Source: Candidatus Obscuribacteraceae bacterium
Lineage (GTDB): Bacteria; Cyanobacteriota; Vampirovibrionia; Obscuribacterales; Obscuribacteraceae
NCBI GenBank assembly: GCA_044226015.1
Contig: JBGAHS010000002.1
Coordinates: 689,571-753,570, forward strand
Direction: 5' to 3'
DNA: 64,000 nucleotides
Shown in pieces: positions 8,721 through 19,895 of the stretch. A program made the translations under genes and the position numbers. A model generated the notes under the pieces. That model had not been told where the DNA came from, searched no databases, and saw nothing but the letters and a program-made list of their open reading frames with translations. Positions within the stretch are counted from its first letter, which is position 1, and the number at the start of each line of letters is the position of its first letter.

Positions 8721-8999
8721 GTAGTTTATGCAACTTTTTTCGGCATTATTGCAAATTCTTTCGTGCCACCATTCGGATGGTATCACTTACGGTGCACGAC
8801 AGAACATACACCCTTTCGAAAATGATGCTTACTCACCCATGTTCGCTTGCGCTTCGGAGAGAAAGCCAGGCTCTAACAATTCGAAACTCATGCTTTTCCC
8901 TGCCGGTTACTTGACAGCCACAAATGGCTGATTTAGTTCACAACGATGTAAATGAAGAGGCCTGGTCTGCTATGCTTGCGCTCAAAGAGAGACAATCCT

Positions 9000-10469
9000 A
9001 TGCACCTCGACCCGCTAATGCTGTCACGCATTCAGTTTGCGTTGACCATTATGTTTCACTACATCTTCCCGCCACTGACGATTGGTTTGGGATTATTTAT
9101 GGTGATAATCGAGACGCTCTGGCTCTATAAAAAAGAAGCCATTTACGAGTCTATGGCTCGCTTCTGGACCAAAATATTTGCCGTCAACTTCGCCATGGGC
9201 GTCGCGACTGGCATTGTAATGGAATTTGAGTTTGGTACGAATTGGTCTCGATATTCCAAATTTGTGGGCGATGTTTTCGGCTCAGCACTTGCGGCGGAAG
9301 GCATTTTTGCGTTTTTTCTGGAATCAGGCTTTCTTTCCATTCTCGTGTTCGGCTGGGGACGAGTTGGCAAAAAACTGCATTACCTCTCAACATTGATGGT
9401 GTGCCTGGGGTCGATTTTCTCAAGCGTCTGGATAACTATTGCAAACAGCTGGCAACAGACACCAGCTGGCTATCACATAGTAAAGACTGCCAACGGACTT
9501 TTGCGCGCAGAGATCGTCGATTTCTGGGCCATGGTCTTCAACCCATCGACAGTCCCCCGGCTTCTGCACGTCTGGTTGGGCGCTTTCGTTCTAGGTGCTT
9601 TCTTCGCACTAAGCATTAGTGCATTCTACATTTTGAAAAACATCCATCTTGATTTTGCAAAACGTAGTTTCAAAATCTCTCTTGTGTATGCGGCAGCCGC
9701 ATCGATGATCGCCGCAGCATCAGGGCATCTTCAAGCCTGCGAAGTGGCGGAGAACCAGCCCGCCAAACTCGCTGCAATGGAAGCACACTTCACCACCGGC
9801 ACTGGTGGCACAGGATTGTGGCTGTTCGGGCTGCCCGATCCCAAAAAGCAGCAGGTAAATTTCGGAGTTCAAGTGCCTTCGCTGCTCAGCCTGCTGGTAT
9901 ATTTCAACCCCGACAAACCTGTAAAAGGGCTCGACGCGTTCCCCAAGGAAGACCATCCACCAATTCTGATACCTTTCATTTCTTTTCACCTGATGGTGGC
10001 ACTCGGAACTTACTTTATTGCAGTGACCATGCTTGCATTGTTCCTGTGGTGGCGCGGAATGCTATTTAACTCGCGCCCGCTTCTGTGGACTTTTGTTTTC
10101 TCAACAGTTCCTGCCATTGCTGCAAATGAATTAGGCTGGGTCACTGCTGAAGTCGGACGACAGCCCTGGGTCGTCTATGGCCTTCTGCGCACCGCTGATG
10201 GTTACTCACAGGCAGTACCAGCAGAGCACATTTTAGGCTCGATCATCATGTTTGCAGTGATTTACTCCCTCTTATTCTGGGTGTGGATCTACGTTCTGCA
10301 CCAGAAAATACTACACGGACCCGAGCCAGTAACTGACATCACTGACAATACCCCACTCGGACAACTAATCGATTCTGCATCGCGTAGGAGCGACCCGGCT
10401 GGGCCATCAATGACTAGCTCAAAATCACCGTCCGACGAGCCGGCAAATCCCAACAGCGGGGAGGCTTGA
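9000..10469 (+). CDS. cydA: Cytochrome bd ubiquinol oxidase subunit I
   Basis: [44 protein letters not shown]. Confidence 0.97.
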
Positions 10470-10470
10470 T

Positions 10471-11487
10471 ATGGATATTCACATAATGATGTTCATTCTC
10501 ATGGGAATTCTGCTTTCCGGCTATGGCATTCTCGACGGCTTTGACCTGGGCGTGGGCATTCTTCATCTTTTTGGAAAAACGGAAGAAGAAAGAGCCGTGA
10601 TGATGCACACGATCGGCCCAGTCTGGGACGGCAACGAAGTCTGGCTAGTAACTTTTGGCGGCGCCCTTTTTGCAGCCTTTCCCAATGTGTACGCTGCGTC
10701 TTTTTCAGGGTTCTACCTTCCGTTCATGGTTCTTCTCAGTGCTCTAATTTTCCGTGGTGTGTCACTCGAATTCCGCAACAAAAACAAATCTACAAATTGG
10801 AAACGCTTCTGGGATTTTTCGTTTTGTATGTCGTCAGCGCTAATCGCATTTTTGCTCGGAGTGGCTGTAGGAGACACAATGCAGGGCTTACCTGTGGATG
10901 CCAAAGGTGATTTCGTCGGAAGCATTGCAGACGTTTTTCGCCCCTACCCACTGCTTGTTGGACTATTGTCGGTAGCAGGCTGCGCAATGCACGGTTCCAT
11001 CTACTTATATTTGAAGACAAAAGAAGAGCTGCAAAGCAAAATACACCCGTGGATGTGGACCACTTTCGGCATATTTCTAGTGTTTTACATGCTCACCACG
11101 ATGGTGACTCTAATATCAGTTCCAAGCTCAGTCGAAAACTTCAAGCGCTTCCCGATTGCCTGGACTGTTGTCATTCTAAACATTCTCGCGATCGCCAATA
11201 TTCCCCGCGCGATATTTTTGAGTAGACCTTTCTACGCATTTATTTCGTCATCAGCAACGATATTGGGTCTGACTAGCCTCTTCGGAATCGCCCTGTTTCC
11301 AAATCTTTTGCGTTCCACCATTGATGAGAAGTTCAGCTTGAATATTTACAACGCTTCCTCTTCAGAGCCTACGCTCTGGCTAATTTTCTGGATTGCGTGC
11401 ATGGGTGTTCCGTTTGTTTTGTCCTATACCGGAGTGGTGTACTGGGTTTTTAGAGGAAAGATTACCGCGGAGGACGTAATCTATTGA
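10471..11487 (+). CDS. cydB: Cytochrome bd ubiquinol oxidase subunit II
   Basis: LDGFDLGVG, PVWDGNEVWL; directly downstream of cydA. Confidence 0.97.
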   Translation: MDIHIMMFILMGILLSGYGILDGFDLGVGILHLFGKTEEERAVMMHTIGPVWDGNEVWLVTFGGALFAAFPNVYAASFSGFYLPFMVLLSALIFRGVSLEFRNKNKSTNWKRFWDFSFCMSSALIAFLLGVAVGDTMQGLPVDAKGDFVGSIADVFRPYPLLVGLLSVAGCAMHGSIYLYLKTKEELQSKIHPWMWTTFGIFLVFYMLTTMVTLISVPSSVENFKRFPIAWTVVILNILAIANIPRAIFLSRPFYAFISSSATILGLTSLFGIALFPNLLRSTIDEKFSLNIYNASSSEPTLWLIFWIACMGVPFVLSYTGVVYWVFRGKITAEDVIY

Positions 11488-11640
11488 GTTATCAGCCGCC
11501 ACTTGGAAACCGCGGTTGACATTGTGTTTATGAGAGTTTGGGTATAAACCTGAAATAAGCGTTTATGTTCTGTAGGATCCGTTGTCATATGGTGTATAAC
11601 CGCTAGAAATACGCTTTAGATAAGCTTTGGGGAGCGAGAG

Positions 11641-12774
11641 ATGGGTAAAGGTGGTCTTGAAGATGTCGTTGCAGCGGACTCCAGTGTTTGCTTTTTAGAT
11701 GGCAAAGAAGGGCGTCTGATTTATCAGGGCTATGACATACATGATTTGGCAAAACATTCGACTTTTGAAGAAACGGTTTATTTGCTCTGGTTTGGACGCA
11801 TGCCGGTCAAATCGGAATTGGACAAACTAAACACCGACCTTCAAACAAATCGCAAGTTGCCAGACGACGTTGTGAAAATGATGAAGATGCTTCCAAAGAA
11901 GGCATTGCCTATGGAAGTACTCCGCACAATCGTTTCCATGTTGTCGATGTACGATGAAGATCCGGAAAACAACGATCGTGAACATACGATCAGAAAAGCA
12001 ATTCATCTGACAGCTCAAATGCCTACCATCATTGCTTATTGGGATAACATCCGCAATGGCAAAGAACCGCTTGCACCTCTGACAGATTGCAACCTTGCTA
12101 CAAATTTCTTGTACATGTTGAATCAAAAGATGCCGGACGAGTTGAGCGCAAAGTCACTCGACCTCGCATTGATTCTGCATGCTGACCATGAATTGAACGC
12201 CTCGACTTTCGCAGCTCGCGTCGCAGCAGCTACCGAAACCGACATGCACTCAGCGATTACTGCAGCCATCGGTGCCCTCAAAGGACCACTACACGGCGGA
12301 GCTAATCAGGAAGTTATCAAAATGTTGTTGCAGATTGGCGAGTCCAGCAATGCTGACCCGTTCATCAAGAAGCAACTTGCTGAGCACAAGAAGGTTATGG
12401 GCTTCGGCCACCGCGTATACAAGACAGAAGACCCACGTGCATGGCACTTGCGTCAGATGTCCGAAGAACTCGGAAAGCGCATCGGCGAAATGAAGTGGTT
12501 CGAAATGTCACGCACCATTGAAGAAGCAGTCTTCCGTGAGAAAGGACTCTACGCAAACGTAGACTTCTACTCCGCGTCGGTGTACTACATGCTCGGTATT
12601 CCAATAGACTTGTTCACACCTATCTTCGCAATGAGCCGCATCTCAGGTTGGGCTGCACACGTTCTTGAACAACATGCAAACAACCGCCTGATTCGCCCAC
12701 GTGCAGAGTACACAGGTCAAACGAATCTCAAATACGAGCCAATCGAAAACAGACATGCACTTTCTAAGTCCTAG
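11641..12774 (+). CDS. gltA: Citrate synthase (short type; 2-methylcitrate synthase not excluded)
   Basis: DHELNAST, GPLHGGAN, MGFGHRVYK, NVDFYS motifs. Confidence 0.9.
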   Translation: MGKGGLEDVVAADSSVCFLDGKEGRLIYQGYDIHDLAKHSTFEETVYLLWFGRMPVKSELDKLNTDLQTNRKLPDDVVKMMKMLPKKALPMEVLRTIVSMLSMYDEDPENNDREHTIRKAIHLTAQMPTIIAYWDNIRNGKEPLAPLTDCNLATNFLYMLNQKMPDELSAKSLDLALILHADHELNASTFAARVAAATETDMHSAITAAIGALKGPLHGGANQEVIKMLLQIGESSNADPFIKKQLAEHKKVMGFGHRVYKTEDPRAWHLRQMSEELGKRIGEMKWFEMSRTIEEAVFREKGLYANVDFYSASVYYMLGIPIDLFTPIFAMSRISGWAAHVLEQHANNRLIRPRAEYTGQTNLKYEPIENRHALSKS

Positions 12775-13637: not shown

Positions 13638-14158
13638 TGCCAGTTTTCGAGACAGCACGCATAGTAGTTCGCGAATTAGACATTGCTGATGCAGCCGACT
13701 TGCACACCATATGCGGTGACGCAGAAGTCATGAAATTTGTCGGCAACCTTCAACCGTACACTTTTCCACAGACAAAGCAAGCAATTTTGAAATGCCTGAA
13801 AAGCTATGGATGGAACGGCTGGGGCGGCTGGGCACTTTGCGACAAAGACAACGCTAGCTTATTCGGGTATGGTGGCTTTGAGTGGGTGGAAGAACGTTCC
13901 ATGCCAGAACTCTTCTATATCTTCAATGCCGAGCATTGGGGCAAAGGTTTCGCAAGCGAATTCGCAAAAGCAGCTGTCATGTACGCCAAAACAGAGCTAA
14001 AACTGAACCAGCTCGGAACCTCCTTTGACCCAGCCAATAAAGCCTCAATGCGTGTAGCTAGCAAGGTAGGATTCACGTTTTCCCATGAGGGACTAGACGA
14101 ATTCAATCTTCCAACCATTTACTACAGCTTGAAGCTTAATGACTTAGCTATTGATTAA
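13634..14158 (+). CDS. GNAT N-acetyltransferase, RimJ/RimL type
   Basis: FETARIVVRE, HWGKGFASE, NKASMRVASKVGF. Confidence 0.9.
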   Translation: MMPVFETARIVVRELDIADAADLHTICGDAEVMKFVGNLQPYTFPQTKQAILKCLKSYGWNGWGGWALCDKDNASLFGYGGFEWVEERSMPELFYIFNAEHWGKGFASEFAKAAVMYAKTELKLNQLGTSFDPANKASMRVASKVGFTFSHEGLDEFNLPTIYYSLKLNDLAID

Positions 14159-14215
14159 AAACCCATTCACGACGGGCTAGGCTCCTATTCTCGATGAATA
14201 AAACCTTTTGTGTCC

Positions 14216-14731
14216 TCAATACTTGTTGAGACAACCATAGCGGCACGAATACCCCATAGAATAATTTCGCACAGCTTCGATGACTCGATTGGCGAACTCA
14301 AAACGATCTCCACCATCGTTGGAGAGTCCATCGAAGTCACCACGCAATGCCTTCATTGCAAATTTTTCGACGTCAATTTCCTGCCTAGTGCGTTTACCCA
14401 TAGCACGCAAAATGGGCACTGGAGGACACCATCCCTGAATTGCATGAAGTAAGAGAAATGAACCTACAATCGCCGGAATAAGTAAAAACCACGGACTCAA
14501 AAAGGCGCCCAAAGCAGTGCCAATTATCACTAGTGAGGATGCATTAGTTTCGATGATTCTCTCAACATCCCACTCAGACTCTAGTTCTTCGATGCGACTT
14601 GAAATAGCAAAATCAGGTTGAGAAGAAAACACATGAATGTTGTGCTCGATTCTTCTGTCAATATCCAAATTCGTTCTCGCCGAAGTGTTATGCCGCACCC
14701 GGTCGAATTCCGAAGGAATCATTTCTACCAT
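14216..14731 (-). CDS. DUF2892/YgaP-like membrane protein
   Basis: EWDVERIIE, two TM helices, HAIQGWCPP; AGAAGGAG RBS before ATG 14731. Confidence 0.8.
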   Translation of the reverse strand: MVEMIPSEFDRVRHNTSARTNLDIDRRIEHNIHVFSSQPDFAISSRIEELESEWDVERIIETNASSLVIIGTALGAFLSPWFLLIPAIVGSFLLLHAIQGWCPPVPILRAMGKRTRQEIDVEKFAMKALRGDFDGLSNDGGDRFEFANRVIEAVRNYSMGYSCRYGCLNKY

Positions 14732-14836
14732 AATCGATCTCCTTCTAATTATATGTATGTCGCATAAGAGACGCGACACATGCTCACTGGTTCCGAAGAG
14801 CATGTGCCGATCGAGTTTCGTGAGCAACGCTCTGCG

Positions 14837-16570
14837 CTAGCCTGAGCTGCGTGCCATGGCTATTTCGTCAACAATGAATTGAGCGACATGGTCAATGACT
14901 ATGTCTCGAGCATCTTTGTCTCCACGCTTTTTGAATTCGACCAGACCCTGCTCGACCTTCTTACCGACAGTAATTCGCAGAGGAATACCGATTAAATCCA
15001 TATCGTTGAATTTGACTCCAGCACGTTCGTTGCGATCATCCAGCAAAACCTCAATGCCCCTTGCGCGAAGCTCAGAGTAAAGCTTTTCTGCATGATTGCG
15101 AAGGTCGTCATTTGCCCAATTAATAGGAACAATTGCAACTTGAAACGGTGCAACAGAAAGCGGCCAAATAATGCCATGCTCATCGTGATGTTGTTCTACC
15201 ACAGCCGCCAGGAGTCGTTCCACACCAATGCCGTATGAACCCATCAAAATCGGAGTCCGCGCTCCTTCAGAGGTCAAAACATGAGCGTTCATCTTTTCGG
15301 AGTAGCGTGTTCCGAGCTTAAATATATGACCGATTTCCAAAGCAGTTTTCAAACTCAAACTGGCGGAGCACTTGCTGCATTTCTCAGACCCTTTAACGGT
15401 ATGCAAGTCAACAAACCTAGCCACCTTCATGTCTCTTGTGATACTTACATTCTTAAGGTGGTAGTCATTCTGGTTTGCACCAGTAACCATTCCGGTGCGT
15501 CCTTCCAGGCGAGAGTCAGCAATCACGGTGTGAATTTTCTTTCCGTCGCCCCACTCCACGCCGCACGCACCCAGTGAACCGGGTTGAGCACCCAACGCAT
15601 CAACGATTTCAGATTCAGTAGCTGCACGGAGGGTTGCAGCTGCCAATGCCGACTGCAATTTTGATTCATTCAATTCCTGGTCACCCTGCACCAATGCAAT
15701 AACCAGTCTCTCATCGGCTCGCATCACAAGAGTTTTCACTTGCTTCGAAGCAGGATATCCCTCGCCAAACTCTTCAAGTTGTTTGATTGTCCGCACTGCC
15801 GGAGTGTGGAATTTCTCGATAGCAGCCTCACTATGCTGGGTGTCCTTTTCAAAAGCTGATTGAGCCTTCTCTAAATTTGCTGCGTAATTACAAGCATCAC
15901 AAACAACGATAGTGTCTTCGCCAGACTCACTTGCAACCATAAATTCAGCTGACGCGCTGCCGCCCATAGCTCCGGAACTAGCTTCTACCATAGTGAATGG
16001 AATGCCGCACCTCGAAAAGATCTTTTTGTAGGCCTCTCGGTGCAAAACATAAGATTTGTCGAGTCCTTCATCATTTACGTCGAAAGAATAAGAGTCTTTC
16101 ATAGTGAATTCTCGAACTCGAAGCAAACCACCTTTCGGACGCAGTTCATCCCTGAATTTCGTCTGAATTTGATACCACATCTGCGGCAATTGTTTGTAGG
16201 AGTTCAAGCTGTTTCTTGCAATCGAAGTGAATACCTCTTCATGGGTCAACCCCAGGGCAAGCGGCGAATCTTTCCTATCTTTCAAACGAAACATGATGTC
16301 CGAAACAGCTTCCAGGCGCCCCGACTCTTCCCAGAGTTCTAGCGGCTGCAGGGCAGACAACATAAACTCCTGGGCTCCAATCTCATTCATTTCCTGCCTA
16401 ATGATATCAATGATTTTCAATCTGACTCTTTGCGCCAGCGGAAGTATGCTGTAAATACCCGCCGCCAACTGCTGGATGTATCCTCCACGCAATAAAAGCT
16501 TGTGGCTAACCGCTTGCACATTTGCCGGCTCATCTCGAAGAGTCGATATAAAACAATTGCTCCAACGCAT
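14837..16570 (-). CDS. proS: Proline--tRNA ligase (bacterial type with INS editing domain)
   Basis: QIQTKFRDELRP, REFTMKDSYSF, EIGHIFKLG, GSYGIGVERL, anticodon-binding domain. Confidence 0.98.
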   Translation of the reverse strand: MRWSNCFISTLRDEPANVQAVSHKLLLRGGYIQQLAAGIYSILPLAQRVRLKIIDIIRQEMNEIGAQEFMLSALQPLELWEESGRLEAVSDIMFRLKDRKDSPLALGLTHEEVFTSIARNSLNSYKQLPQMWYQIQTKFRDELRPKGGLLRVREFTMKDSYSFDVNDEGLDKSYVLHREAYKKIFSRCGIPFTMVEASSGAMGGSASAEFMVASESGEDTIVVCDACNYAANLEKAQSAFEKDTQHSEAAIEKFHTPAVRTIKQLEEFGEGYPASKQVKTLVMRADERLVIALVQGDQELNESKLQSALAAATLRAATESEIVDALGAQPGSLGACGVEWGDGKKIHTVIADSRLEGRTGMVTGANQNDYHLKNVSITRDMKVARFVDLHTVKGSEKCSKCSASLSLKTALEIGHIFKLGTRYSEKMNAHVLTSEGARTPILMGSYGIGVERLLAAVVEQHHDEHGIIWPLSVAPFQVAIVPINWANDDLRNHAEKLYSELRARGIEVLLDDRNERAGVKFNDMDLIGIPLRITVGKKVEQGLVEFKKRGDKDARDIVIDHVAQFIVDEIAMARSSG

Positions 16571-16594
16571 TCTCTTTTCCTTATCTATATACGC

Positions 16595-16679
16595 AACGAA
16601 GAGAGCCCAACCATCTGTTGGCTCTCACAGCGTTTACTACTACCAGCAAAGCGTGTTAGCCAACCTCGATGGTTGGGCT
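16595..16679 (-). promoter_or_regulatory. Putative transcription attenuator of proS (alternative 1:2, 2:3, 3:4 hairpins)
   Basis: mRNA segments AGCCCAACC / GGTTGGCT / GAGAGCCAAC / GTTGGGCTCTC-TTCGTT are mutually complementary. Confidence 0.7.
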
Positions 16680-16712
16680 GCCTGGCGCTGCTGGTGTGTT
16701 AACTGAATTCAT
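16656..16712 (-). CDS. Putative proS leader peptide MNSVNTPAAPGSPTIEVG
   Basis: 18 codons, three CCA Pro codons at 7, 10, 13; ATG lies 6 nt after a TTGACA-N16-CATAAT promoter (16746-16719), consistent with leaderless translation. Confidence 0.65.
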   Translation of the reverse strand: MNSVNTPAAPGSPTIEVG

Positions 16713-16993
16713 TCCTTCATTATGTCCAGCGAAAAGTTTTTGTCAACCAATTACTTCAAAACACTAAGCCCCTATGCCACCACATATGGTGAGGGACAGG
16801 ATTGCTTAAGCGCCTCTAACCCAGATGAGAAAAAGCTCGGAAATGGCTATTTGATTAGGCTTCGCTAAGATACGCAGATCGAACGTGTCGGGTGGGATTT
16901 TTACGATTGCCCGTCGATATACAGCAGACTAAATTTGCATATGGGGAAAGGCAAGGACCTTGAAGTTTTTTATTTGGATGTGAGGTGGAGCTA

Positions 16994-18271
16994 ATGACGG
17001 ACAAAGTAATTCAATTAGATGAAGCGCGCGATAAGACTAGCGAGTCGAAGGACAACTCGAATCAGGCAGGGCAGAATCTAGTTGGCGAGTTGAACAACAA
17101 CAAACAAGAGGCTCTTGCATTGGCGAAGGCTGCGGCAGCTCCCGGACAGTTCCCGGTAGGGTACAGTGTGTTGCCTCCTTACTTGCTGCAAGATCTGGCG
17201 ACCCGTAATCCGCAAAACGGCGACTTCTTAAAGACATACACAAAGACGAAGGACATGCAGGAGACGCCTGTAGTAGTGCGACCAAGAGTCGACACAAATG
17301 CTAATGGCGACCGTGAAGTCTACGACGCCAAAGGCAAGGAAGACCACCCAGGAGACAAGGCTCGCTTCGAAGGAGAGGCAGCAACTGGAGACAATGAAGT
17401 AGACAACGCATACGACTACACTGGAAAAATACGCGACTTTTATCTAAAGGAATACGGACGCAATTCCATTGACGGACAGGGAATGAAATTTATTTCAACT
17501 GTCAACTATGGCGACAACTATGAAAACGCATTCTGGAACGGCTCACAAATGACCTACGGTCGCCCGAGTGACTCAAGCCCCTTCAAGACATTCGTTCTGT
17601 TAGATGTATGCGGACACGAAATCACACATGGCGTCACCGAGAAAGAATCCGGCATGCGCTACTACGGTCAGTCCGGTGCCCTGAACGAAAGTATGTCAGA
17701 CGTATTCGGTGAAATGATTGAGCAATACTCTAAGAAACAAACAGCAGACCAGGCTGACTGGGTAGTCGGAAACGGAATATGGAAAGACACTGTAAAGGGT
17801 CGTGGACTGCGAGACATGTTGAATCCGGGAACTGCCTATGACGATCCAGCAATCGGAAAAGACCCTCAGCCAGCACACATGAAGGATTACTGGAACGGCT
17901 GGGGAGACAATGGTGGCGTGCACTACAACTCCGGCATACCTAACAAGGCGTTTGCCACATTTGCAAAAGCTGTAGGCGGATACGCATGGGAAGATCCAGG
18001 ACACATCTGGTATGACGCAAGAAAAGCTGCAGGAAGTAACCCTGACTTCGCGACATTTGCGTACCATACAATTGAAGCAGCAAAAGCTCGCGGAAAAGCA
18101 GATCTTGTCCAGAAACTAGAAAAGGCTTGGGCTGATGTAGGTGTGGTACCTGCAGCACAAAAAGCTGCCGATACAAAGCCATCAACAGAGTCAGATCCAA
18201 ACAACGATGGCAAGCTTCCTCCACTCGAGAAAGATGATCATGATCACAAACCGCTAAAGAAAGCTGGCTAA
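16994..18271 (+). CDS. M4 family (protealysin-like) zinc metalloprotease, paralog 1
   Basis: PPYLL propeptide motif, NAFWNG, HEITH, GALNES, GGVHYNSGIPN. Confidence 0.93.
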   Translation: MTDKVIQLDEARDKTSESKDNSNQAGQNLVGELNNNKQEALALAKAAAAPGQFPVGYSVLPPYLLQDLATRNPQNGDFLKTYTKTKDMQETPVVVRPRVDTNANGDREVYDAKGKEDHPGDKARFEGEAATGDNEVDNAYDYTGKIRDFYLKEYGRNSIDGQGMKFISTVNYGDNYENAFWNGSQMTYGRPSDSSPFKTFVLLDVCGHEITHGVTEKESGMRYYGQSGALNESMSDVFGEMIEQYSKKQTADQADWVVGNGIWKDTVKGRGLRDMLNPGTAYDDPAIGKDPQPAHMKDYWNGWGDNGGVHYNSGIPNKAFATFAKAVGGYAWEDPGHIWYDARKAAGSNPDFATFAYHTIEAAKARGKADLVQKLEKAWADVGVVPAAQKAADTKPSTESDPNNDGKLPPLEKDDHDHKPLKKAG

Positions 18272-18293
18272 TTCACAGCAATCGAAATTATTT

Positions 18294-18325
18294 GAGAGGC
18301 ACCTTATTTGGTGCCTCTCTTTTTC
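18294..18325 (+). terminator. Intrinsic terminator
   Basis: GAGAGGCACC-ttattt-GGTGCCTCTC followed by T run. Confidence 0.85.
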
Positions 18326-18354
18326 TTCGTGAGCGCGCCAGATTCGTATAGTGA

Positions 18355-18383
18355 GAAGCAGGCTGGAAGCTTGCGCCCCAGGC
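18355..18383. repeat. REP-like dispersed repeat (copies at 22568-22599 and 25745-25773)
   Basis: AAGCAG(G/C)CTGGAAGC..GCG..CCCAGGC shared by three intergenic sites. Confidence 0.7.
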
Positions 18384-18641
18384 GGAAATCCTGCGCCCAA
18401 GCGGGAATCCCGGTGATTCACTCTGCGCCATGGAGATTCGGTGCCTGCGCCCCCAGATTCGCCATACTGCGGCACACAATATCACAACCCAAAACGCTTA
18501 CTGGCATTAGGTTCTGCTCAACTGGTGGTATTGTGCAATGCAAGTGGGATTGCTACGCTTGAAGCCAATTCGTAGCAGTTGGTAGAGTAGCTCTGGACTG
18601 GGGGGTCACATTATTCAGTAGGCAAGGCGAGGTCTTTAGAA

Positions 18642-19895
18642 ATGGACGATAACTCACGTCAAAGAGTCGAGAAAGCTACACCCGTTACCGAGCGAAATGA
18701 AGAAGCAAGCAACAAACTTGCATCCGAAGCAAATGCAAAAACAGGCGAAGTTCTGGCGTTCGCCAAAACTGGCAGCGCAGCACAAAGTTTCAAACCAAGC
18801 GGATTTAGCGTCATTCCTCCATATGTCCTGGAAGATTTAGCCAAGAAAAATCCTGGTCAAGACGGCTTTTTGAAAACGTACAACAAGACAAAGGAAATGC
18901 TTGATTCACCGAGCAAAATAAAACCGAGAGCGGTAGGTGGAAATGATTCTGCCCGGGAAGTTTATGACGCTAAAGGAAAAGAAGTACAACCCGGTGATAA
19001 AGCTCGCTTTGAAGGAGACAAGGCTACTGGTAATGAAGAAGTAGACAACGCCTATGATTACACGGGCTTTATTCGCGACTTCTACAAGAAAGAATACGGG
19101 CGCGATTCTATCGACGGCAATGGCATGAAATTTGTCTCCACCGTAAATTATGGAGACAACTATGAGAATGCATTCTGGAACGGGTCGCAGATGACCTATG
19201 GTCATCCTTCAGCAGACAGCCCTTTCAAAACGTTTGTGCTTCTAGACGTATGCGGACATGAAATCACCCATGGTGTCACAGAAAAAGAATCGAACCTGAC
19301 TTATTACGGTCAATCAGGAGCACTGAACGAAAGCCTCTCGGACGTATTTGGCGAACTAATCGAACAATACTCTAAGAAGCAAACCGCAGATCAAGCCGAT
19401 TGGGTTGTAGGTAATGGCATTTGGAAAGACACGGTCAAAGGACGCGGCTTGCGCGACATGCTAAATCCAGGCACCGCATATGATGACCCAAAAGTTGGAA
19501 AAGACCCACAACCTGCCCACATGAAAGACTATCTGAAAACGTGGGGAGACAATGGAGGCGTTCACTACAACTCGGGAATTCCAAATAAGGCATTTGCAAC
19601 ATTTGCCAGAGCGGTAGGTGGCAACGCGTGGGAAACACCTGGACATATCTGGTATGAAGCCAGAAAAGCAGCAGGTAGCGACCCAAGTTTCGCACAATTT
19701 GCATATCACACGATTGAAGCAGCAAAGACTCGCAAAGATGCAGAACTAGTGAAGAAACTGGAAAAAGCCTGGTCCGACGTAGGTGTGACTCCATCTGCCA
19801 CAGAAAAGGATAATGACACACCAAGCCGTGGCGATGACGGTGACTGGGACGAAATAAGAAAAGGCGTCAAGAAAGGCTTGAAGAAAGCTTCCTAA
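18642..19895 (+). CDS. M4 family (protealysin-like) zinc metalloprotease, paralog 2
   Basis: PPYVL, HEITH, GALNES; highly similar to paralog 1. Confidence 0.93.
   Translation: MDDNSRQRVEKATPVTERNEEASNKLASEANAKTGEVLAFAKTGSAAQSFKPSGFSVIPPYVLEDLAKKNPGQDGFLKTYNKTKEMLDSPSKIKPRAVGGNDSAREVYDAKGKEVQPGDKARFEGDKATGNEEVDNAYDYTGFIRDFYKKEYGRDSIDGNGMKFVSTVNYGDNYENAFWNGSQMTYGHPSADSPFKTFVLLDVCGHEITHGVTEKESNLTYYGQSGALNESLSDVFGELIEQYSKKQTADQADWVVGNGIWKDTVKGRGLRDMLNPGTAYDDPKVGKDPQPAHMKDYLKTWGDNGGVHYNSGIPNKAFATFARAVGGNAWETPGHIWYEARKAAGSDPSFAQFAYHTIEAAKTRKDAELVKKLEKAWSDVGVTPSATEKDNDTPSRGDDGDWDEIRKGVKKGLKKAS

Follow-up and report, generated by a model that had tools for sequence, protein, structure and literature searches.

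Upstream of proS in the analysed window, which is a stretch of 64,000 nucleotides from a representative of the family Obscuribacteraceae, a promoter-like site, a short open reading frame (ORF) with proline codons and several complementary segments follow one another as a cassette of about 140 nt. The question raised by this locus is whether the cassette controls the synthesis of prolyl-tRNA synthetase (ProRS) by ribosome-mediated attenuation, as was claimed in a preliminary description of this DNA, which also assigned it a leaderless leader peptide. Probably it does: the conserved leader ORF with proline codons and the mutually exclusive terminator and antiterminator folds predicted for it point to a leaderless attenuator of proS, reading the level of charged tRNA-Pro. 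The claim is well supported by conservation, by frame-specific enrichment of proline codons, by covariation and by sister leaders with cognate serine and methionine codons, while a transcription start at the leader and a response to proline are what these data would imply.

Elements of the leader region

The gene proS (16570-14837, minus strand) encodes family II (bacterial-type) ProRS of 577 amino acids with 15 prolines, as judged by profile match, and all elements of the leader are located on the same strand. The promoter is represented by the -35 hexamer TTGACA (16746-16741) and, after a spacer of 16 nt, the -10 hexamer CATAAT (16724-16719), located 6 nt before the ATG at 16712. It matches at 11 of 12 positions and is the sole promoter-like site in 16000-17500; some 1.8 sites of this quality would turn up by chance, and the promoter by itself is therefore no proof. 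Transcription is predicted to start at the A of the ATG or adjoining it. The leader ORF comprises 18 codons and TAA (16712-16656) and contains CCA as codons 7 (16694-16692), 10 (16685-16683) and 13 (16676-16674).

Segment 1 (16679-16668), within which the codon for Pro13 is located, is predicted to pair either with segment 2 (16665-16658), forming a hairpin of -9.6 kcal/mol, or with segment 4 (16611-16601), the latter through a perfect 12-bp helix (16679-16668 with 16615-16604). The stop codon lies at the end of segment 2, which forms the 5' strand of the putative antiterminator; segment 3 (16626-16617) serves as its 3' strand or, alternatively, pairs with segment 4 in the terminator hairpin 3:4 (-12.8 kcal/mol), segment 3 being the 5' arm and segment 4 the 3' arm. 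An inner hairpin (16655-16626) is predicted to stack within the 2:3 helix. The hairpin 3:4 is followed by the tract TTCGTT (16600-16595) and ends 30 nt upstream of the start of proS, leaving free the SD-like AAGGA (16582-16578), which lies outside it. The promoter hexamers with their spacer, the ATG, the ORF with three CCA codons, segments 1 to 4 and TTCGTT were all found where the preliminary description had placed them on the minus strand. As to the alternative pairings, given there as 1:2 with 3:4 against 2:3, the 2:3 antiterminator is retained, but the perfect 1:4 helix and the inner hairpin had been overlooked.

The caveat of a weak U tract holds for this locus, where a standard terminator scan over the proS leader region called no terminators because of that weakness, but most relatives carry longer and clearer U tracts behind the leader hairpin. 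In an Rfam search of 14000-19000, no match was detected at E <= 5, T-box included, and a T-box riboswitch with its Stem I specifier loop and antiterminator consensus was rejected on this ground. A repeated palindrome of the REP/BIME type was likewise rejected, the leader being present in a single copy and matching only itself in the genome. Divergent from proS are two tandem, similar M4-type metalloprotease genes (16985-18271 and 18642-19895, plus strand), the first of which has weak M4 family matches. ORFs at 8952-12774 (plus strand), judged by eye, resemble the genes for both subunits (I and II) of cytochrome bd oxidase and, after them, for citrate synthase.

Conservation of the leader in the family

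Genes of family II proS were found in 59 of the 104 genomes of the family sample, and the upstream DNA of all 59 was compared, a comparison that the preliminary description had proposed. The rule for recognizing a leader called for TTGACA no more than 300 nt upstream, followed after 34-37 nt by an ATG that opens an ORF of 12-30 codons; proline was not demanded. By this rule a leader is present in 36/59 genomes, spanning 12 genera, and in each of the 36 the ORF contains 2-5 proline codons and is followed by a hairpin with a U-rich tail. TTGACA is found in 36/36 leaders because the rule demanded it; at the same -10 spacing, relatives carry CATAAT, GATAAT, CATACT or weaker variants of the CAAAAC type. 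The 16-nt spacer, regarded as a weakness in the preliminary description, is less of one now, being the rule among proS leaders of the family. The counts of promoter spacers over the whole genome, which show no peak at 16 nt, carry no information on this. An SD-like word precedes the leader ATG in 5/36 cases only, so leaderless starts of the leader ORFs are likely on the evidence of their sequences.

At least two proline codons are present in 36/36 leaders and at least three in 32/36; as a background, the same promoter and ATG rule applied to this genome yields 90 short ORFs, with at least two proline codons in 29 and at least three in 13. Genus-weighted, proline accounts for 20% of leader codons 2-20 against 4.7% in long ORFs, and it is the only residue present at least twice in these codons in 36/36 leaders; alanine, second by weight, reaches 12.6% and occurs twice in 16/36. 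All four proline codons occur among the 36 leaders, CCA representing 25.8 of 43.5 genus-weighted proline codons against 35% in long ORFs. Apart from proline, neither the sequence of the leader peptide nor its length (12-30 codons) is conserved.

Of the 23 genomes that lack the leader, 2 are cut by contig ends, and in 16 proS is preceded by a gene of the same orientation whose end is at most 42 nt away; G007, G011, G017, G067 and G077 have room upstream or an unclear context, yet carry no leader. Inspection of the head of the upstream operons (3-7 kb) in 20 of the 23 genomes revealed only a Ser/Pro leader in G086 and two intragenic chance matches. In G043 (L105), a TTGACA-16-CATAAT promoter stands about 30 nt ahead of the start of proS, the leader ORF is missing and the gene match has one internal TAA, which possibly reflects a loss of the attenuator. 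In other families of the class, the leader was found in 0/6 genomes with bacterial-type proS, and in other phyla 1/79 proS loci (one of 80 was dropped, its upstream DNA being too short) has a promoter with a two-proline ORF, a weak match. For proB, the TTGACA and ATG rule gave no match within 300 nt.

Predicted folding and the proposed mechanism

The predicted minimum free energy of the leader is -58.9 kcal/mol (z = -4.1; 0/200 shuffles as good); the 2:3 helix with the inner stem amounts to -22.7 kcal/mol and the full rod with 1:4 to -46.1 kcal/mol. A similar inner stem is present in the leaders of the relatives displayed, and in most relatives the partner of segment 3, equivalent to segment 2, is located at about nt 45-70. 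For all 36 leaders the RNA under a ribosome standing at each proline codon or at the stop was masked and the remainder folded in equilibrium models; terminators were picked by script, that of G104 being re-called by hand, and the hairpin stem is present in all 36 as picked. The mean terminator probability is 0.28 with the ribosome at the first proline codon, 0.32 at the second, 0.84 at the last and 0.92 at the stop; at the second proline codon it rises to 0.84 once the free upstream sequence is shuffled (30 shuffles each). It is below 0.5 at an early proline codon in 30/36 leaders and at least 0.8 at the stop in 32/36. G002, G004, G006, G045, G115 and G116 are exceptions: their equilibrium fold retains the terminator even when the ribosome stands at an early proline codon. 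In G042 (L117), the leader ORF of which stops at codon 13 against codon 25 in its genus, no terminator is predicted with the ribosome at this early stop.

In the genome studied, the fold is predicted to switch somewhere within codons 12-15, according to the footprint size; stalls at Pro7 and Pro10 are clearly ON, and a stall at Pro13 is borderline, with a terminator probability of 0.26-0.89 by footprint size. Folding with masking, proposed in the preliminary description, thus agrees with it in that Pro7 and Pro10 stalls favour the antiterminator, but in these models the deciding factor for the terminator is whether segment 2, not segment 1, is covered by the ribosome. The supposed masking of segment 1 by a stalled ribosome applies partly or wholly to Pro10 and Pro13, but not to Pro7: a ribosome there would leave segment 1 (nt 34-45) uncovered, and the predicted pairing of this segment with segment 4 would strengthen 2:3. 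The naked RNA of this genome is predicted to be antiterminated at equilibrium (terminator probability 0.03), and relatives are mixed, with a mean of 0.50; in stepwise folds, pairing of the 1:2 type persists up to nt 97.

RNAalifold, applied to 20 of the 36 leaders as aligned by MAFFT, returned no consensus pairs, the alignment being out of register, and covariation was therefore examined by swapping: one leader per genus (the first handle in order) was taken, and each upstream part was joined in silico to each terminator. Antitermination is predicted in 12/12 native leaders against 30/132 cross-genus chimeras, with 0/20000 permutations as good. By duplex energy, 2:3 alone was equalled in 1/20000 permutations and 1:4 alone in 625/20000, which is weak covariation. 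These swap-test and folding numbers overstate independence, since the genera are kin and the terminators were picked by script.

From the sequence, its conservation, the gene identities and the predicted folds we infer the start site, the translation, the termination and the signal, as follows. Transcription would start at or next to the AUG, and a ribosome would load onto the RNA at its 5' end. With ample Pro-tRNA it would pass codons 7-13, reach the stop and cover segment 2, so that segment 3 would be free, 3:4 would form and RNA polymerase would halt at the U tract. With Pro-tRNA in short supply, the ribosome would pause on one of the CCA codons located upstream of segment 2, and 2:3 with the inner stem would form; in an early stall, segment 1 would also capture segment 4, the resulting rod would engage both arms of the terminator, and proS would be transcribed. 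The enzyme induced would be a proline-poor ProRS with an editing domain. Several features of the attenuator class are seen here, namely an ORF with cognate codons, an exclusive antiterminator over the end of the ORF and a stall geometry that switches in silico in the 30/36 leaders mentioned above. No gene for rho (TIGR00767) was matched in the 92% complete genome, which fits intrinsic termination; together with a hairpin clear of the SD-like site of proS, it suggests that transcription is what is terminated.

The main rival explanation keeps the attenuator and replaces the signal: general slowness at proline, caused by EF-P activity, ribosome stress or Mg2+ stress, would be sensed instead of Pro-tRNA charging. 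Runs of two or more prolines in 23/36 leaders and the presence of efp in the genome would accord with it, as would the leaders of Salmonella, where, according to an excerpt of PMC3641672, proline codons control magnesium-transport genes and not proline genes. It is nevertheless improbable, given that 13/36 leaders, including the one studied here, have no adjacent prolines, that the controlled gene encodes ProRS itself, and that the sister leaders match their own amino acids. An RNA switch working without translation, or a fixed leaky terminator, would make the prolines a by-product of C-rich pairing segments, an idea that draws on the position of Pro13 within segment 1, on the high stability of the naked RNA and on the few prolines of the methionine leaders (in 27 of them, one in 17, two in 5, three in 1 and none in 4). 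We regard this reading as very improbable: over their first 20 codons, the 36 proS leaders contain 143 CCN triplets in the ATG frame against 64 and 57 in the other frames, while in the methionine leaders (30, 77 and 26) the peak is outside the ATG frame. The distance between TTGACA and ATG is, moreover, held at 34-37 nt in 36/36 leaders, and the Rfam search found no match.

In a third alternative, control would be exerted on proS translation or by the leader peptide as such, rather than on transcription. In mycobacteria, leaderless cysteine sORFs exert their effect at a ribosome-binding site (excerpt of bioRxiv 10.1101/834739), and the weak U tract at this locus would suit such a mode. The chance of this is slim, because the hairpin leaves the SD-like site uncovered, most relatives have U-rich tails behind it, and nothing in the peptide beyond proline is conserved in sequence or length. 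The reading preferred here is accordingly still the attenuator of transcription that responds to charged tRNA-Pro.

Sister leaders, known systems and the two prolyl-tRNA synthetases

A genome-wide scan blind to amino acids, based on a promoter, a close ATG, a short ORF, a hairpin and a downstream gene, gave 9 matches, three of which are cognate pairs (Pro with proS, Ser with serS, Met with the gene for cystathionine gamma-synthase); the other six have no cognate match. The serine leader (L146, G000:C8:646542, minus strand) is a leaderless-type ORF ending in five serine codons, followed by a second serS (TIGR00414), and leaders with serine runs and the same promoter layout were found in 6/6 related loci (L190-L195). 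The methionine leader (L147, G000:C7:258397, minus strand), a Met-rich ORF of the leaderless type, precedes the gene for cystathionine gamma-synthase; methionine leaders with the same promoter layout are present in 27/30 related loci (L196-L225), 26 of them with at least two internal methionines. Among 22 synthetase-family matches in the genome (selected families were searched), a leader is found only at family II ProRS and at the second SerRS. In G086 (L173:1-4040, minus strand), serS, a gene for a pentapeptide-repeat-like protein and proS form an operon, the leader of which, MQTVIQQFIFAPSSSSPSK..., has two proline codons flanking a serine run and is possibly a dual Ser/Pro sensor, a single suggestive case.

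A synthetase operon under a leader-peptide attenuator is represented by pheM-pheST, and in Firmicutes proS is under T-box leaders, which bind tRNA directly, without translation. The gene and the signal, uncharged tRNA-Pro, are the same in the latter case, but the leader described here has no T-box match. An auxiliary, antibiotic-resistant TrpRS of Streptomyces, described in 2010 by Vecchione and Sello, is reportedly under ribosome-mediated attenuation; the present case is similar in that a second synthetase copy has an attenuator with cognate codons, and differs in that the two ProRS copies belong to different families. We know of no inhibitor for this ProRS case.

In the trp and his attenuator model, a short ORF with cognate codons is followed by four segments, with 2:3 opposed to 3:4 (excerpt of PMC1183508). 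Like trp and his of E. coli and Salmonella, the proS leader has the cognate-codon ORF, the four segments, the stop codon at segment 2 and a putative intrinsic terminator. Unlike trp, his and pheST, it concerns proline and proS, has a predicted leaderless start and would use a rod antiterminator with an inner stem and a 1:4 helix. It would also depart from trp super-attenuation, the untranslated proS leader RNA being predicted to read through at equilibrium. In Streptomyces lividans TK24, the synthetase leaders leuL2-leuS, trpL2-trpS and thrL-thrS have been reported, with alaL-alaS also listed, several of them leaderless, and the words 'proline' and 'prolyl' are absent from the main text (PMC8079986). 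These are likewise leader peptides of synthetase genes, but their sequences are unrelated and they belong to another phylum. The proline codons of Salmonella mgtP (mgtCBR) and mgtL (mgtA) respond to conditions lowering Pro-tRNA (excerpt of PMC3641672). Their targets are magnesium transport and virulence, mgtP has an SD sequence, and there is no intrinsic terminator, mgtA using Rho. A leader of the mgtL/mgtP type was rejected for proS on account of the conserved terminator-type hairpin and of the 92% complete genome without a rho match.

Proline and proS are absent from the excerpted part of a survey of Actinobacteria (PMC1262725), and for cyanobacteria an excerpt of PMC4833913 states that reliable evidence for attenuation is lacking. 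No leader-peptide attenuator of proS was found in the literature, as judged by titles and the beginnings of abstracts; the surveys of Vitreschak 2004, Lopatovskaya 2010 and Naville and Gautheret 2010 could list predicted ones. Comparison supports the leader well as a real variant of classical ribosome-mediated attenuation, within what sequences and models can indicate. It would bring proline and proS within the range of classical attenuation by an intrinsic terminator, in presumed relatives of the cyanobacteria, and the 140-nt cassette would serve as a direct in-cell sensor of Pro-tRNA.

The product of proS contains a tRNA_edit domain at residues 256-374. A second ProRS, of family I (archaeal type), is encoded on contig C6; it has neither an editing domain nor a leader. 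The proline content of the family II enzyme (2.6%, 15 in 577 amino acids) is below that of the family I copy (3.94%) and also lower than in any of the 77 full-length orthologues compared from other phyla, which average 4.69% and reach down to 2.85%. Within the family, the mean is 3.10% in leader-bearing copies (20 of 36) and 3.58% in the others (20 of 23), a small difference among kin. Identity across the family is 79-97% for the family I protein and 58-76% for the N-terminal part of family II, which fits a housekeeping role of the former and an accessory role of the latter; the archaeal-type ProRS is thus likely the housekeeping copy. It was found in 22/36 leader-bearing and 14/23 leader-less genomes (assemblies are incomplete), and the idea that the leader tracks a spare ProRS copy was rejected on these counts. 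In G069, 91% complete, neither ProRS query was matched.

A wider reading, which we offer tentatively and consider rather unlikely as a whole, combines these observations. The Pro, Ser and Met leaders would be a lineage-specific leaderless set, re-tunable as in G086, and the proS leader would swap enzymes: failure of the archaeal-type ProRS would switch on the editing-competent, proline-poor bacterial-type ProRS. Such failure would be triggered by a lack of proline, by mischarging with alanine or by a natural inhibitor of the housekeeping archaeal-type family. An untranslated leader would also be ON through the 1:4 rod, the reverse of trp super-attenuation. Attenuation of proS would offer a testable reason why two unrelated ProRS enzymes are kept in these genomes. 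The genome has genes for tRNA-Pro with each of the anticodons UGG, CGG and GGG, among 72 tRNAs annotated by ARAGORN, many of which are packed as a tRNA array within about 2 kb near 356333-358584 of one G000 contig.
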